A stretch of 64,000 nt of DNA, taken from IMG/VR virus record IMGVR_UViG_2718218305_000006, one strand, 5' to 3'. Position 1 is the first letter of the stretch. Every line of letters begins with the position of its first letter. A program made the translations under genes and the position numbers. The notes beneath the pieces are model-generated. The model saw only the letters and a program-made list of their open reading frames with translations. It did no database searches and was not told the origin of the DNA. This document shows positions 38,518 through 46,678 of the stretch, piece after piece. The DNA comes from a virus. Lineage: Duplodnaviria; Heunggongvirae; Uroviricota; Caudoviricetes.

Positions 38518-38716
38518 AATGTTGCCCCATATTCAGTGTTGCTGATTTGTATTATCTGAAGTTGCTTTTACGTTAATTTGATGCAGATCAATTAATACGA
38601 TACCTGCGTCATAATTGATTATTTGACGTGGTTTGATGGCGTAGATGCACGTTGTGACATGTAGATGATAATTATTATCATTTTGCGGGTCCTTTCCGGC
38701 GATCCGACCGGTTACG

Positions 38717-38728
38717 GGGCGGCGACCT
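38717..38728 (+). other. cos: cosN cohesive-end sequence (GGGCGGCGACCT) with lambda-like cosB downstream
   Basis: Exact lambda 12-nt cohesive end followed by CGCGGGTTTTCGCTATTTATGAAAATTTTCCGG, about 175 bp upstream of nu1. Confidence 0.8.
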
Positions 38729-38903
38729 CGCGGGTTTTCGCTATTTATGAAAATTTTCCGGGGAAAATCATGTCGGTACTTCTCGAACATAACTATTTGT
38801 TTTTTCTAATATCGAATCCGTAAAGGTCCGACATGAAAACGCCTGAAAAAGTCATTTTCGGGCACTTTCATGTCGGACCCTGTATTTGTTGTGAGACTGT
38901 TTC

Positions 38904-39449
38904 ATGAAGGTTAATAAAAAGAAACTTGCCGAAATTTTCAACGTGGATCCGCGAACGATTGAACGCTGGCAGTCTCAGGGGCTCCCTTGCGTCTCCGGAG
39001 GTGGTAAGGGCGTTGAATCTGTATTTGATACCGCCACGGCAATTCAGTGGTATGCGCAGAGGGAAGCTGATATCGAAAATGAAAAACTCCGTAAAGAGGT
39101 TGAGGATTACAGGGCTGCCAGCGAGGCAGATCTCCAGCCTGGGACTATTGAGTACGAACGCCATCGACTTACGCGTGCGCAGGCTGACGCCCAGGAGCTG
39201 AAGAATGCCAGAGACTCCGCAGAAGTGGTGGAAACCGCATTCTGTACTTTCGTGCTGTCACGGATCGCAGGTGAAATTGCCAGTATTCTTGACGGGATCC
39301 CTCTCTCAGTACAGCGGCGTTTTCCGGAACTGGAAAACCGACATGTTGATTTCCTGAAACGGGATATTATCAAAGCCATGAACAAAGCAGCCGCGCTGGA
39401 TGAACTGATACCGGGGTTGCTGAGTGAATATATCGAACAGTCAGATTGA
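38904..39449 (+). CDS. nu1: Terminase small subunit Nu1
   Basis: 181 aa; near-identical to lambda Nu1 over C-terminal 120 aa. Confidence 0.9.
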
Positions 39450-41349
39450 TATTCTGCGGCGTGATGTACGCGCCGGGCTGCGAGCCCTGTTCAGGCCGGA
39501 GCCACAGACTGCCGTTGAATGGGCGGATGCCAGTTACTATCTCCCGAAAGAATCCGCATACCAGGAAGGGCGCTGGGAAACACTACCCTTTCAGCGGGCT
39601 ATCATGAATGCGATGGGCAGCGACTACATCCGCGAGGTGAATGTGGTGAAGTCTGCCCGTGTTGGTTATTCAAAAATGCTGCTGGGTGTTTATGCCTACT
39701 TCATAGAGCATAAGCAGCGTAACACCCTTATCTGGTTGCCGACGGATGGTGATGCCGAGAACTTTATGAAAACCCACGTCGAGCCTACCATCCGCGATAT
39801 TCCGTCGCTGCTGTCTCTGGCCCCGTGGTATGGCAAAAAGCACCGGGATAACACGCTCACTATGAAGCGTTTCACCAATGGTCGTGGCTTCTGGTGCCTG
39901 GGCGGTAAAGCGGCAAAAAACTACCGTGAAAAGTCGGTTGATGTGGCGGGTTATGATGAACTTGCTGCCTTTGATGAGGATATTGAACAGGAAGGCTCTC
40001 CGACGTTCCTGGGTGACAAGCGTATTGAAGGCTCGGTCTGGCCAAAGTCCATCCGTGGCTCCACGCCCAAAGTGAGAGGCACCTGCCAGATTGAGCGTGC
40101 AGCCAGTGAATCCCCGCATTTTATGCGTTTTCATGTTGCCTGCCCGCACTGCGGGGAGGAGCAGTATCTTAAATTTGGCGACAAAGAGACGCCGTTTGGC
40201 CTCAAATGGACGCCGGATGACCCCTCCAGCGTGTTTTATCTCTGCGAGCATAATGCCTGCGTCATCCGCCAGCAGGAGCTGGACTTTACTGATGCCCGTT
40301 ATATCTGCGAAAAGACCGGGATCTGGACCCGTGATGGCATTCTCTGGTTTTCGTCATCCGGTGAAGAGATTGAACCGCCTGACAGTGTGACCTTTCACAT
40401 CTGGACGGCGTACAGCCCGTTCACCACCTGGGTGCAGATTGTCAAAGACTGGATGAAGACGAAAGGGGATACGGGAAAACGTAAAACCTTCGTGAACACC
40501 ACGCTCGGTGAGACGTGGGAAGCGAAAATCGGCGAACGTCCGGATGCTGAAGTGATGGCAGAGCGGAAAGAGCATTATTCAGCGTCCGTTCCTGATCGTG
40601 TGGCTTACCTGACCGCCGGTATCGACTCCCAGCTGGACCGCTACGAAATGCGCGTATGGGGATGGGGGCCGGGTGAGGAAAGCTGGCTGATTGACCGGCA
40701 GATTATTATGGGCCGCCACGACGATGAACAGACGCTGCTGCGTGTGGATGAGGCCATCAATAAAACCTATACCCGCCGGAATGGTGCAGAAATGTCGGTA
40801 TCCCGTATCTGCTGGGATACTGGCGGGATTGACCCGACCATTGTGTATGAACGCTCGAAAAAACATGGGCTGTTCCGGGTGATCCCCATTAAAGGGGCAT
40901 CCGTCTACGGAAAGCCGGTGGCCAGCATGCCACGTAAGCGAAACAAAAACGGGGTTTACCTTACCGAAATCGGTACGGATACCGCGAAAGAGCAGATTTA
41001 TAACCGCTTCACACTGACGCCGGAAGGGGATGAACCGCTTCCCGGTGCCGTTCACTTCCCGAATAACCCGGATATTTTTGATCTTACCGAAGCGCAGCAA
41101 CTGACTGCTGAAGAGCAGGTCGAAAAATGGGTGGATGGCAGGAAAAAAATACTGTGGGACAGCAAAAAGCGACGCAATGAGGCGCTCGACTGCTTCGTTT
41201 ATGCGCTGGCGGCGCTGCGCATCAGTATTTCCCGCTGGCAGCTGGATCTCAGTGCACTGCTGGCGAGCCTGCAGGAAGAGGATGGTGCAGCAACCAACAA
41301 GAAAACACTGGCAGAATACGCCCGTGCCTTATCCGGAGAGGATGAATGA
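39424..41349 (+). CDS. A: Terminase large subunit A
   Basis: 641 aa; near-identical to lambda gpA along whole length. Confidence 0.95.
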
Positions 41350-41552
41350 CGCGACAGGAAGAACTTGCCGCTGCCCGTGCGGCACTGCATGACCTGATGA
41401 CAGGAAAACGGGTGGCAACGGTACAGAAAGACGGACGGCGAGTGGAGTTTACGACCACTTCCGTGTCTGACCTGAAAAAATACATTGCTGAGCTGGAAGT
41501 GCAGACCGGCATGACACAGCGACGCAGGGGACCAGCAGGATTTTATGTATGA
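41346..41552 (+). CDS. W: Head-tail joining protein W
   Basis: 68 aa lambda gpW. Confidence 0.9.
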
Positions 41553-44792: not shown

Positions 44793-44847
44793 CCTGACCC
44801 TTCATCACTAAAGGCCGCCTGTGCGGCTTTTTTTACGGGATTTTTTT

Positions 44848-45873
44848 ATGTCGATGTACACAACCGCCCAACTGCTGGCGGCAAATGAGCAGAAATTTAA
44901 GTTTGATCCGCTGTTTCTGCGTCTCTTTTTCCGTGAGAGCTATCCCTTCACCACGGAGAAAGTCTATCTCTCACAAATTCCGGGACTGGTAAACATGGCG
45001 CTGTACGTTTCGCCGATTGTTTCCGGTGAGGTTATCCGTTCCCGTGGCGGCTCCACCTCTGAATTTACGCCGGGATATGTCAAGCCGAAGCATGAAGTGA
45101 ATCCGCAGATGACCCTGCGTCGCCTGCCGGATGAAGATCCGCAGAATCTGGCGGACCCGGCTTACCGCCGCCGTCGCATCATCATGCAGAACATGCGTGA
45201 CGAAGAGCTGGCCATTGCTCAGGTCGAAGAGATGCAGGCAGTTTCTGCCGTGCTCAAGGGCAAATACACCATGACCGGTGAAGCCTTCGATCCGGTTGAG
45301 GTGGATATGGGCCGCAGTGCGGCGAACAACATCACGCAGTCCGGCGGCACGGAGTGGAGCAAGCGTGACAAGTCCACGTATGACCCGACCGACGATATCG
45401 AAGCCTACGCGCTGAACGCCAGCGGCGTGGTGAATATCATCGTGTTTGACCCGAAAGGCTGGGCGCTGTTCCGTTCCTTCAAAGCCGTCAGGGAGAAGCT
45501 GGATACCCGTCGCGGCTCTCATTCCGAACTGGAGACAGCGGTAAAAGACCTGGGCAAAGCGGTGTCTTATAAGGGAATGTATGGCGATGTGGCCATCGTC
45601 GTGTATTCCGGACAGTACGTGGAAAACGGCGTCAAAAAGAACTTCCTGCCGGACAACACGATGGTGCTGGGGAACACTCAGGCACGCGGTCTGCGCACCT
45701 ATGGCTGCATTCAGGATGCGGACGCACAGCGCGAAGGCATTAACGCCTCTGCCCGTTACCCGAAAAACTGGGTGACCACCGGCGATCCGGCGCGTGAGTT
45801 CACCATGATTCAGTCAGCACCGCTGATGCTGCTGGCTGACCCTGATGAGTTCGTGTCCGTACAACTGGCGTAA
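44848..45873 (+). CDS. E: Major capsid protein E
   Basis: MSMYTTAQLLAANEQKFKFDPLFLRLFF.. lambda gpE, 341 aa. Confidence 0.95.
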   Translation: MSMYTTAQLLAANEQKFKFDPLFLRLFFRESYPFTTEKVYLSQIPGLVNMALYVSPIVSGEVIRSRGGSTSEFTPGYVKPKHEVNPQMTLRRLPDEDPQNLADPAYRRRRIIMQNMRDEELAIAQVEEMQAVSAVLKGKYTMTGEAFDPVEVDMGRSAANNITQSGGTEWSKRDKSTYDPTDDIEAYALNASGVVNIIVFDPKGWALFRSFKAVREKLDTRRGSHSELETAVKDLGKAVSYKGMYGDVAIVVYSGQYVENGVKKNFLPDNTMVLGNTQARGLRTYGCIQDADAQREGINASARYPKNWVTTGDPAREFTMIQSAPLMLLADPDEFVSVQLA

Positions 45874-45914
45874 TCATGGCCCTTCGGGGCCATTGTTTTT
45901 CTGTGGAGGAGTCC

Positions 45915-46313
45915 ATGACGAAAGATGAACTGATTGCCCGTCTCCGCTCGCTGGGTGAACAACTGAACCGTGATGTCAGCCTGACGGGGACGAAAGAAGA
46001 ACTGGCGCTCCGTGTGGCAGAGCTGGAAGAGGAGCTTGATGACACGGATGAAACTGCCGGTCAGGACACCCCTCTCAGCCGGGAAAATGTGCTGACCGGA
46101 CATGAAAATGAGGTGGGATCAGCGCAGCCGGATACCGTGATTCTGGATACGTCTGAACTGGTCACGGTCGTGGCACTGGTGAAGCTGCATACTGATGCAC
46201 TTCACGTCACGCGGGATGAACCTGTGGCATTTGTGCTGCCGGGAACGGCGTTTCGTGTCTCTGCCGGTGTGGCAGCCGAAATGACAGAGCGCGGCCTGGC
46301 CAGAATGCAATAA
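45915..46313 (+). CDS. FI: DNA packaging protein FI
   Basis: MTKDELIARLRSLGEQLNRDVSL.. lambda gpFI; GGAGGAG SD. Confidence 0.9.
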   Translation: MTKDELIARLRSLGEQLNRDVSLTGTKEELALRVAELEEELDDTDETAGQDTPLSRENVLTGHENEVGSAQPDTVILDTSELVTVVALVKLHTDALHVTRDEPVAFVLPGTAFRVSAGVAAEMTERGLARMQ

Positions 46314-46324
46314 CGGGAGGCGCT

Positions 46325-46678
46325 GTGGCTGATTTCGATAACCTGTTCGATGCTGCCATTGCCCGCGCCGATGAAACGATACGCGGGTACATGGGAACGT
46401 CAGCCACCATGACATCCGGTGAGCGGTCCGGCGCAGTAATACGTGGTGTTTTTGATGACCCTGAAAATATCAGCTATGCCGGACAGGGCGTGCGCGTTGA
46501 AGGCTCCAGCCCGTCCCTGTTTGTCCGGACTGATGATGTGCGGCAACTGCGGCGTGGTGACACGCTGACCATTAACGGCGAGATGTTCTGGGTGGACCGT
46601 GTTTCTCCGGATGACGGAGGGAGTTGTTATCTCTGGCTCAACCGTGGGCAACCACCGGCAGTTAACCGGCGACGATAA
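46325..46678 (+). CDS. FII: Head-tail joining protein FII
   Basis: MADFDNLFDAAIARADETIRGYMG.. lambda gpFII; GTG start. Confidence 0.9.
   Translation: MADFDNLFDAAIARADETIRGYMGTSATMTSGERSGAVIRGVFDDPENISYAGQGVRVEGSSPSLFVRTDDVRQLRRGDTLTINGEMFWVDRVSPDDGGSCYLWLNRGQPPAVNRRR

Follow-up and report, generated by a model that had tools for sequence, protein, structure and literature searches.

Introduction

In packaging, lambda and phage 21 each favour their own DNA over that of the other by a factor of more than 1000, and residues 20 and 24 of TerS, together with base pairs 56 and 59 of the R3 site, have been named as the lambda/21 specificity determinants (PMC4669245). Laboratory hybrids such as lambda-21 hy51 combine a 21-type cosB and TerS N-terminus with the TerS C-terminus, TerL and head of lambda, and chimeras of this architecture are viable and 21-specific (PMC4669245, PMC9026076).

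Sp11, an annotated, well-studied defective prophage of Escherichia coli O157:H7 Sakai, has been described before, as has its mosaic nature (PMC2669165). It was found to be neither circularised, replicated nor packaged; it lacks xis and has defects in int, the repressor and the recombination genes, and its terminase, head, tail and lysis genes were reported intact (PMC2669165). The same study argued that Sp8, Sp10 and Sp11, whose morphogenesis genes are intact, may be a source of virion proteins for other defective prophages (PMC2669165).

Here we analyse a 64,000-nucleotide stretch of DNA (the window) that matches the Sakai genome (NC_002695.2) at 99.9%. Two prophages that an initial annotation of this sequence called B and A are annotated in Sakai as Sp11, integrated at ydfJ, and Sp12, with which it lies in tandem. 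The block studied is very probably the cos site and terminase/head-morphogenesis operon (Nu1-A-W-B-C/Nu3-D-E-FI-FII) of Sp11, a patchwork with a 21-type cosB and TerS N-terminus (Table 1).

Table 1. Features of the Sp11 packaging and head region, in window coordinates.
Feature	Position	Strand	Basis or comparison
Lambda/Qin-type right end, with cosQ, cosN and I2	38370–38759
Lambda/Qin-type non-coding right-end DNA	38370–38716	+	89.6% identical to lambda 48156–48502
R4/cosQ box, CGGGTCCTTTCC	38686–38697	+	same as annotated R4 of phage 21 and that of lambda
12-nt cohesive end within cosN, GGGCGGCGACCT	38717–38728	+	exact match
Phage-21-type specificity cassette, cosB + Nu1 codons 1–71	38760–39117	+	86.9% nucleotide identity to phage 21
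R3	~38766–38781		register with phage 21
IHF site I1	~38788–38802		register with phage 21
R2, inverted	~38823–38838		register with phage 21
R1	~38866–38881		register with phage 21
Nu1 (TerS, 181 aa), natural 21/lambda chimera	38904–39449	+	aa comparison with both phages
A (TerL, 641 aa)	39424–41349	+	98.1% aa, 97.2% nucleotide identity to lambda
Stretch identical to a Stx1a phage	~40100–44500		zero mismatches
W (head completion, 68 aa)	41346–41552	+	98.5% aa identity to lambda
B (portal, 533 aa)	41549–43150	+	98.7% aa identity to lambda
C (S49 prohead protease, 439 aa)	43131–44450	+	97.9% aa identity to lambda
Nu3 scaffold (201 aa), nested in-frame in C	43845–44450	+	98.0% aa identity to lambda
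D (head decoration, 110 aa)	44460–44792	+	99.1% aa, 99.7% nucleotide identity to lambda
Stretch closest to lambda itself	~44500–46536
E (major capsid protein, 341 aa)	44848–45873	+	98.8% aa identity to lambda
FI (packaging accessory protein, 132 aa)	45915–46313	+	98.5% aa, 99.5% nucleotide identity to lambda
FII (head-tail connector, 117 aa)	46325–46678	+	92.3% aa identity to lambda
PhiR12-type piece: FII 3' end, Z, 5' half of U	46537–47450	+	PhiR12-series phages 95–96%

Results

Likeness of the head block to lambda

The initial annotation described positions 38700–46678 as virtually identical to the lambda packaging and head module, and nucleotide identity is indeed high, not low as it would have to be to refute that description: a megablast search against lambda (J02459 1–7925) aligned 96% of the query in two pieces at 97.2% identity. 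Using an ungapped register (window = lambda + 38713), we found 97.62% nucleotide identity over 39118–46479 and 97.22% over 39118–46678, both with zero indels. All ten ORFs (Nu1, A, W, B, C/Nu3, D, E, FI, FII) are intact, and gene order, start codons and lengths are those of the lambda left arm (J02459 nt 1–7965, cos, Nu1–FII), without a single indel from the start of Nu1 to the end of FII; cosQ/R4, cosN and I2 are identical or nearly so. The description therefore holds for most of the block but not for cosB, Nu1 residues 1–71 and the end of FII, which are not of lambda type. Likewise, the claim of an almost residue-for-residue match applies to A, W, B, C, D, E and FI (97.9–99.1% amino acid identity), less so to FII, and is wrong for Nu1. 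Seven of the 12 differences between A and its lambda counterpart fall within the first 37 residues. Leaving aside Nu1 residues 1–71, the codon differences from lambda comprise 144 synonymous and 47 nonsynonymous changes (3:1), a ratio that indicates purifying selection; the selection it records took place in the phage pool and is not peculiar to Sakai. The limits of the lambda-like DNA also required correction, to 38370 and ~46537 rather than 38700 and 46678, with a ~358-bp non-lambda cassette interrupting it.

A phage-21-type cassette at cos

Tiles of the right-end DNA match lambda at 92–93% of bases, and K-12 Qin likewise. The 12-nt cohesive end GGGCGGCGACCT occurs once in the window against a chance expectation of 0.01 matches. 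The exact lambda cohesive end reported initially is thus present, but it is not diagnostic of lambda, as the identical 12 nucleotides are found in phage 21, Qin, a Stx1a phage and the phage IdasGreatGrand. Up to bp 43 there are four informative sites, at each of which Sp11 agrees with lambda; from bp 46 it agrees with phage 21.

From there to ~39118, where the sequence returns to lambda type, nucleotide identity is 86.9% to phage 21, ~55–66% to lambda and 98.5% to IdasGreatGrand; the cosB DNA itself (~38760–38903) is ~54–60% identical to lambda. R3, I1, R2 and R1 were located from the annotation of phage 21, read in the same register, and TGTCGG/CCGACA cores stand at left-end bp 55, 112 and 155, exactly the same positions as in phage 21. 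The lambda R box CGTTTCC is absent from Sp11 cosB.

The same switch runs through Nu1, which is 82.9% identical to the lambda protein with 29 of the 31 differences in residues 1–71. In this DNA-binding domain 61 of 71 residues match phage 21 and 42 match lambda, whereas in residues 72–181 (oligomerisation and TerL binding) 108 of 110 match lambda. The 21/lambda joint, at codons ~68–72, falls where the solved DNA-binding domain of lambda ends (1j9i, residues 1–68), and the best solved-structure match of Sp11 Nu1 is 7lwr, whose sequence is that of the phage 21 gp1 N-terminus (the TerS DNA-binding domain). At TerS residues 20/24 Sp11 and phage 21 have E/S where lambda has Q/E, and at R3 bp56/59 they have G/G where lambda has T/C. 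The recognition-helix stretch is identical to that of phage 21. In the TerS wing (residues 30–37) Sp11 SGGGKGV is nearer to lambda RGGGKGN than to phage 21 SKGSKGI, and the R boxes differ from those of phage 21 by one base in R3 and two in R1.

Taken together, Sp11 shares with phage 21 (X02501, M81255, OL657228; 7lwr) the R3-I1-R2-R1 architecture and register, the (A/G)TGTCGG cores and their spacing, the recognition helix and the R3 bp56/59 bases. Elsewhere the two differ: the TerS C-terminus, TerL, portal and capsid are lambda-type in Sp11, and phage 21 matches just ~30–73% of tile bases over the rest of the module.

Mosaic boundaries and closest phages

Breakpoints were read from mismatch density rather than from a formal recombination test, and nearest relatives were assigned from mismatch-density and tile maps; these assignments depend on the phages present in the collections. 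On this basis the three-way mosaic proposed initially is an undercount, since the head block alone divides into at least four patches, and 38370–47450 into at least five pieces, that differ in their nearest relatives. The 21-type patch is near-identical to IdasGreatGrand from ~38760 out to ~39600. The B gene has zero mismatches to the Stx1a phage LC645434. For FI, lambda is the nearer of the two, the Stx1a phage showing 8–13 mismatches per 100 bp here. Within FII there is a mosaic joint at codon ~71: 46439–46536 has zero mismatches to lambda and mismatches are dense from 46537; the last ~47 FII codons and the downstream Z/U region have diverged from lambda. The piece at 46537–47450 bridges a head of lambda type and a tail of O157 type; none of lambda, the Stx1a phage and IdasGreatGrand exceeds 79% of tile bases in it, and Sp12 matches in the 47300 tile only (73%). 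From ~47450–47600 on, identity to the Sp12 and Stx1a-phage tails is ~99–100%. The tail was correctly said to be shared with prophage A: it is common to Sp12 from ~47291, with window positions 3343–16343 matching 47291–60135 at 91–96.5%.

Escherichia phage IdasGreatGrand (PP925829), a deposited isolate, is the sole phage record to align unbroken along the full query (100% coverage, 96.9% identity). It carries the same 21-type cassette, with 0–3 mismatches per 100 bp across 38700–39600, but its early and lysis regions differ, its tail is lambda-type and in the head genes it stands slightly further from Sp11 than the Stx1a phage does. Stx1a-converting phages with lambda-type heads (e.g. LC645434) are collinear with Sp11 38666–59455 through head and tail at 95% overall and have the same O157-type tail; they differ in a lambda-type cosB and TerS N-terminus, in the FII-C/Z/U-N piece, in their early regions and in carrying stx1.

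Among complete E. coli genomes, 3483 of 5426 (~64%) carry the lambda-type head block at ≥95% identity and 567 of 5426 the 21-type cassette at the same threshold. The O157 records among the matches listed have one cassette place each, and none of the O157 genomes listed has a second 21-type cos. The top 120 TerS homologues include 12 clusters that combine another N-terminus with a lambda-type C-terminus.

Early, lysis and late-regulation regions

Describing the early region as Qin/dicB-type was an overstatement. Int, dicF-dicB, ydfA, hok/sok and ydfU align to K-12 Qin, but these amount to 2145 of 12977 bp (~17%), and the Sp11 immunity and replication genes have no match in K-12 Qin, whose own are unrelated. 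Qin shares the ydfJ insertion site, an int fragment (95% amino acid identity) and dicF-dicB (93% nucleotide identity); it differs in having a lambda-type cosB and nohA and no head operon. The lysis cassette is of Stx-phage type as proposed, with 96% (holin), 97% (endolysin) and 100% (Ant) amino acid identity to 933W and ~97% nucleotide identity to Stx1a phages and YYZ-2008. The same label for late regulation found no support in Q, a DUF1133-type protein with zero tblastn matches in 933W, a Stx1a phage, lambda or Qin.

Discussion

Alignments and breakpoints are direct readings of the DNA; function and packaging specificity are predictions from it, and the working of the module is modelled on its homology to lambda. 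TerS (Nu1) would bind the R boxes of cosB, aided by an IHF-induced bend at I1, and would thereby position TerL (A) to nick cosN and generate the 12-nt cohesive ends. With Nu3 as scaffold, gpE would form a prohead that the gpC protease matures, and the terminase-DNA complex would dock on its gpB portal with the assistance of FI. DNA would then be pumped in, gpD would stabilise the expanded shell, and W and FII would close the head, creating the tail-binding site.

The earlier reading, which takes everything from cosN to FII to be essentially lambda, packaging specificity included, within a simple three-module mosaic, has in its favor the overall identity to lambda, the exact cosN and the 98–99% amino acid identity of A through FI. 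It is already refuted at the sequence level by the 21-type cosB/Nu1, which lacks the lambda R box and has 21-type specificity determinants, and by the further foreign piece in the FII C-terminus, Z and U; the small Qin-aligned share of the early region and a Q that is not of Stx-phage type also count against three modules, and we give this reading almost no chance of being right. Given the 87% identity, the wing and the R3/R1 differences, the precise cos specificity of Sp11 could differ from that of phage 21. A third specificity, related to that of phage 21 but so distinct that its terminase and that of phage 21 would not cross-package, would suit the ten mismatched residues of 71, their clustering in the wing, the R-box changes and the range of N-terminal variants found on lambda-type C-termini. 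We consider it improbable, however, with the recognition-helix stretch, the R-box cores and their spacing all conserved and all four lambda/21-discriminating positions (PMC4669245) of 21 type.

Present use is a separate matter from identity. With int, repressor and recombination genes defective, xis absent and no circularisation, replication or packaging, Sakai may never make use of the module. That it is a silent relic without present function in O157, kept only because it was recently acquired, is possible though doubtful. The behavior of Sp11 (PMC2669165) fits such a relic, as does the lack of a second 21-type cos in the O157 genomes listed, which would leave a packaging run without a place to terminate, and the long zero-mismatch tracts to the Stx1a phage are more indicative of recent exchange than of long-term maintenance. 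Against it stand the ten intact ORFs and the 3:1 ratio, albeit one set in the phage pool, and the proposed supply of virion proteins to other prophages (PMC2669165). A relic would in any case be compatible with our preferred explanation, a patchwork head operon with a 21-type cosB and TerS N-terminus.

The finding is ordinary, since such packaging/head blocks are common in E. coli, and the module is a patchwork whose pieces come from the pool of lambda-type head alleles common in E. coli. Its design is that of hybrids such as hy51, with differences: the 21-type tract of Sp11 ends at codon ~71 and spans ~358 bp, where hy51 has ~600 bp; Sp11 has lambda-like cosN and I2; and unlike the laboratory hybrids the Sp11 chimera is natural and derives from a relative of phage 21 rather than phage 21 itself. 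Cos recognition by Sp11 is thus predicted to be of phage 21 type, with the lambda-type TerS C-terminus linking it to a TerL and head that are also of lambda type, and the Sp11 terminase is predicted to be the natural equivalent of the lambda-21 hybrids made in the laboratory.

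Prophage identity and the lambda-like head block

Positions 30000–50000 are 99.9% identical to E. coli O157:H7 str. Sakai (NC_002695.2, reverse strand), and hundreds of other O157 genomes match as well. Here two prophages, Sp12 and Sp11, called prophages A and B in the initial annotation, lie in tandem adjoining the ydfJ pseudogene, and in the deposited annotation the stretch 38700–46678 of Sp11 comprises the cos site and genes ECs_2180 to ECs_2172, annotated as terminase, portal, protease, decoration, capsid and connector. An IS629 (IS1203) copy at 15432–16741 sits near the right end of Sp12, immediately before the Sp12/Sp11 junction. 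The T3SS effector genes nleG2-3, nleG6-2 and nleG5-2 (60258–62258) occupy the right end of Sp11, past the tail-fibre genes, and are absent from the aligned Sp12 end.

The initial annotation had described 38700–46678 as a virtually lambda-identical packaging and head module, and for the head genes this description holds. The gene order Nu1-A-W-B-C (with nested Nu3)-D-E-FI-FII is present downstream of cos, all ten ORFs are intact, and their lengths and start codons are those of lambda, in agreement with the deposited annotation. Megablast against phage records aligned the stretch to lambda (J02459, 1–7925) in two pieces at 97.2% identity and 96% query coverage; nucleotide identity is thus not low behind the protein similarity and therefore the core observation stands. 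A fixed ungapped register (window position = lambda position + 38713) runs from the Nu1 start to the FII end without an indel and gives an identity of 97.22% over 39118–46678 and 97.62% over 39118–46479. The encoded proteins are correspondingly close to lambda's (A 98.1%, W 98.5%, B 98.7%, C 97.9%, Nu3 98.0%, D 99.1%, E 98.8% and FI 98.5% amino acid identity), and the codon differences outside the Nu1 N-terminus, 144 synonymous and 47 nonsynonymous, form a pattern that would be expected under purifying selection. Across 39500–46400 lambda matches 94–100% of tile bases and the phage 21 record M81255 about 30–73%, so that the TerL, portal and capsid genes are not those of the phage 21 head module.

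The lambda packaging mechanism is well established (summarised in PMC4669245 and PMC9026076). By analogy, the Sp11 small terminase subunit (TerS, the Nu1 product) would bind cosB with the help of IHF, the large subunit (TerL, the A product) would nick cosN, and the complex would dock on the gpB portal of a gpE/Nu3/gpC prohead; DNA would then be packaged, the head stabilised by gpD, and W and FII would finish the head for tail joining. The morphogenesis, packaging and lysis genes of Sp11 are all reported to be intact, the repressor, int and recombination system to be disrupted and xis to be missing, and neither circularisation nor replication nor packaging was detectable (PMC2669165). Because of these defects the module is, in Sakai, at most a reservoir of parts and a substrate for recombination. 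We also considered whether Sp11 heads might complement the head-defective Stx1 prophage Sp15, since Stx1a phages elsewhere have near-identical head genes. This was rejected because the head module of Sakai Sp15 is non-lambda (TerS of 158 aa, TerL of 707 aa, and a protease/scaffold gene disrupted by IS629).

Features of the Sp11 region (window positions unless marked as left-end bp)
Feature	Position	Strand	Remark
Sp12 right end	1–17023		deposited annotation
"prophage Sp11, lambda-like phage"	17024–62801		deposited annotation
DicF sRNA	19480–19531	-	Rfam gathering-score match; adjoins dicB-like gene
sok antisense RNA of hok/mok locus	26741–26915	+	Rfam gathering-score match
Putative Q antiterminator	29355–29909		DUF1133/Phage_antitermQ
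AraC-family regulator	30593–31180		between Q and nanS-p
tRNA-Ile	31209–31281		between Q and nanS-p
tRNA-Arg	31385–31458		between Q and nanS-p
TerB-domain gene	31631–32062		between Q and nanS-p
STnc100	32231–32403	+	Rfam gathering-score match; directly upstream of nanS-p
R4/cosQ box	38686–38697		
R core	left-end bp 55	+	
I1 (IHF)	left-end ~bp 72–86		
R core	left-end bp 112	-	
R core	left-end bp 155	+	
Patch	38700–39600		nearest IdasGreatGrand; 0–3 mismatches/100 bp
Patch	40100–44500		nearest Stx1a phage LC645434; 0 mismatches/100 bp in most bins (0–2); lambda ~2
Patch (D, E, FI)	44500–46400		nearest lambda; mostly 0–1 mismatches/100 bp, 3–6 at 45300–45600
Patch	from 46537		PhiR12-type piece; mismatches dense vs all three references

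A phage 21-type specificity cassette at cos

A single copy of the 12-nt lambda cohesive end, GGGCGGCGACCT, lies at 38717–38728 (0.01 occurrences expected by chance). The site is arranged as cosQ, cosN and cosB in that order; R2 is the inverted member of its three R boxes, and an IHF site separates R3 from R2. Although cosN is the exact lambda cohesive end, as first annotated, these 12 nt do not single out lambda, being found also in phage 21, K-12 Qin, a Stx1a phage and IdasGreatGrand. The Nu1 protein, said to match lambda almost residue for residue, does not: it is 82.9% identical overall, with 29 of its 31 differences falling within residues 1–71, and residues 72–181 match at 108 of 110 positions. 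In a sliding comparison, identity to lambda drops to 54–60% across ~38790–39180 (lambda 75–400). The diverged tract as a whole (~358 bp, ~38760–39117, covering cosB and Nu1 codons 1–71) is 66% identical to lambda, 86.9% to phage 21 (X02501, M81255, OL657228) and 98.5% to Escherichia phage IdasGreatGrand (PP925829).

Lambda and phage 21 have cosQ and cosN in common, and yet the preference of each for packaging its own DNA over that of the other exceeds 1000-fold, the discriminating contacts being R3 bp 56 and 59 with TerS residues 20 and 24; the pair at bp 56 is TA in R3-lambda and GC in R3-21 (PMC4669245). When aligned to an annotated phage 21 cos record, the R3, I1 (IHF), inverted R2 and R1 elements of Sp11 stand in phage 21 register, and their TGTCGG/CCGACA cores are located at exactly the phage 21 positions; neither CGTTTCC nor GGAAACG, the lambda R-box core, is found in left-end bp 1–200. 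At R3 bp 56/59 Sp11 has G/G and at TerS residues 20/24 it has E/S, as does phage 21, where lambda has T/C and Q/E. The best solved-structure match to the Sp11 TerS N-terminus is 7lwr, whose sequence is that of the phage 21 gp1 N-terminus; both have an identical 13-residue recognition-helix stretch, their differences being concentrated in the wing (residues 30–37). Judged by sequence, Sp11 has the phage 21 specificity set (TGTCGG core in register, R3 G/G, recognition helix, E20/S24), and it lacks the lambda set (CGTTTCC core, R3 bp 56 T and bp 59 C, TerS Gln20/Glu24). Literature searches turned up no previous report of O157 prophages with a 21-type cos, the cos sequences of Figure S8 of PMC2669165 lying outside the searched text.

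The limits of the cassette are sharp. On the left, Sp11 agrees with lambda at four of four lambda/21-distinguishing sites up to bp 43 and with phage 21 from bp 46, which places the joint at ~38759–38762. On the right, it returns to lambda at ~39118, Nu1 codon ~72, directly beyond the solved DNA-binding domain of lambda TerS (residues 1–68, 1j9i). Divergence of cosB and the Nu1 N-terminus by drift was rejected because at either edge a few bases suffice for identity to fall from ~97% to ~55%, and because phage 21 and IdasGreatGrand are the phages that the tract does match. Given the two joints, Sp11 TerS is a natural 21/lambda chimera. The viable lambda-21 laboratory hybrids, like Sp11, combine cosB-21 and a 21-type TerS N-terminus with a lambda TerS C-terminus and lambda TerL (PMC4669245, PMC9026076). 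We regard it as roughly an even chance that cosB and the TerS DNA-binding domain form an independently exchangeable natural packaging-specificity cassette, with joints that coincide with functional limits, one immediately to the right of cosN/I2 and the other where the winged-helix domain ends (codon ~70), and with an insulated Sp11 terminase in O157. Under this exchangeable-cassette reading the Sp11/IdasGreatGrand lineage would be a natural lambda/21 hybrid.

Internal patchwork and the right-hand limit

The head block is itself composite when mapped as mismatch density per 100 bp, the nearest reference changing from patch to patch, and in FI the Stx1a phage has 8–13 mismatches per 100 bp. This patchwork looks like the product of repeated homologous exchange in a shared allele pool rather than of a single lambda import. 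About 4.4 kb of it (A 3' end, W, B and C; 40100–44500) is nearly mismatch-free against LC645434, a Stx1a-converting phage of another strain, with differing flanks, and suggests that Sp11-like prophages and Stx1a phages exchanged DNA very recently.

Mismatches to lambda are lacking over 46439–46536 and dense from 46537, at FII codon ~71; identity to lambda is 92.3% for FII, 69% for Z, 81% for U and 78% for V. The piece from 46537 to 47450, comprising the FII 3' end, Z and the 5' half of U, is matched by lambda, the Stx1a phage and IdasGreatGrand at no more than 79% of tile bases each and by Sp12 at the 47300 tile only (73%); phages of the PhiR12 series match it at 95–96%. From ~47450–47600 on, Sp11 is ~99–100% identical to the Sp12 and Stx1a-phage tail.

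Neighbouring modules of the mosaic

The tail was correctly described as shared with the neighbouring prophage: 3343–16343 in Sp12 matches 47291–60135 in Sp11 at 91–96.5%, apart from a local divergent patch at ~49140–49362. Around this G-T/H junction (49140–49362 vs 5192–5405) Sp11 and Sp12 do not align within otherwise 91–99% identical tails, and the Stx1a phage is 99–100% identical to Sp11 there.

For the early region, designated Qin/dicB-type, the integration site, integrase and dicF-dicB operon bear out the assignment (vs K-12 Qin, flanking ydfJ is 96.9% identical, the int fragment 95% at the amino acid level, and dicF-dicB 93% at the nucleotide level), and ydfA, hok/sok and ydfU are also common to both. 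However, the alignment to K-12 Qin extends over no more than 2145 of the 12977 bp. The Sp11 repressor, cro, O and P have no Qin match, so that a Qin-type immunity region (dicA/dicC) is not found, and the cII-like protein matches weakly (38% amino acid identity).

The designation of the lysis and late-regulation region as Stx-phage-type is likewise partly right. The Stx layout, Q–tRNAs–(stx)–nanS-p–S–R–ant–Rz, is present with homologous lysis genes: amino acid identity to 933W is 96% for the holin, 97% for the endolysin, 100% for Ant and 77% for Rz, the tRNA cluster has 87% nucleotide identity, and NanS-p is 53–56% identical (53% vs 933W). Stx1a phages and YYZ-2008 match parts of 32246–38517 at ~97% nucleotide identity. 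The Q allele does not fit: the putative Sp11 Q gave no tblastn match (E ≤ 1e-5) in 933W, a Stx1a phage (Stx1a_120412), lambda or Qin (including ydfT), so a Stx-phage-type Q was rejected and "Stx-type late regulation" is not supported. Sp11 Q is thus unlike Stx-phage Q, yet the layout downstream is Stx-phage-like. No stx genes occupy the stx position; the AraC-like and TerB-domain genes sit there, in the slot (30593–32062) where Stx phages carry stx. Between Rz and the cos region (context 37400–38370) lies a moron, pchB (37897–38211), encoding a PerC-family transcriptional activator (Pfam PerC, E = 5e-44), where lambda has bor; GC content directly upstream of it (37400–38000) is 31–38%, compared with ~52% in the head genes.

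Prevalence and significance

Of 5426 complete E. coli genomes, 3483 carry the head block (40100–46400) at ≥95% identity; in the O157:H7 records listed it occurs in two places, the second copy not being Sakai Sp15, which has a different head type. The Sp11-type cassette is found at ≥95% in 567 genomes, in one place each among the O157 records listed, and ~806 further genomes have an 80–90% identical version, like phage 21. In the protein database the exact TerS chimera is represented by an entry (P0001, 99% identical) that stands for 837 member sequences. All but one of the best 120 TerS homologues have a lambda-type C-terminus, joined to an N-terminus that is lambda-type in 104, 21-type in three and of another kind in 12; by these comparisons the N-terminal domain appears as the variable, exchangeable part of TerS. 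Many protein entries of ~234–256 aa (mostly 244; P0042, P0046, P0051 and others) contain an Ail/Lom Pfam domain together with a Nu1 homologue of nearly full length; these may be gene-call read-throughs or real lom/cos deletion joints in tandem prophages.

Taken together, the initial observation was real but overstated and its interpretation partly right. The Sp11 block is a known prophage module, of a type that is very common, and not a new kind of system, and Sp11 and the mosaicism of O157 lambdoid prophages have long been published. Lambda-type head blocks at 95–99% identity are carried by roughly two in three complete E. coli genomes, and the finding has little importance other than for careful annotation. 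The instructive point is the 21-type specificity cassette inside otherwise lambda-like DNA, a natural analogue of the laboratory hybrids and a case from nature on which the lambda/21 specificity rules derived from them can be tested. A lambda-identical cosN and a lambda-like TerL need not mean lambda packaging specificity, the ~360 bp that determine it being swappable while the remainder stays ~98% lambda, and this bears on predicting which prophages, cosmids and PICI-type satellites are mobilised by a resident terminase. If the exchangeable-cassette reading is true, the Sp11 terminase would recognise no cos but its own among those of the lambdoid prophages resident in O157, and Sp11 would be insulated from cross-packaging.
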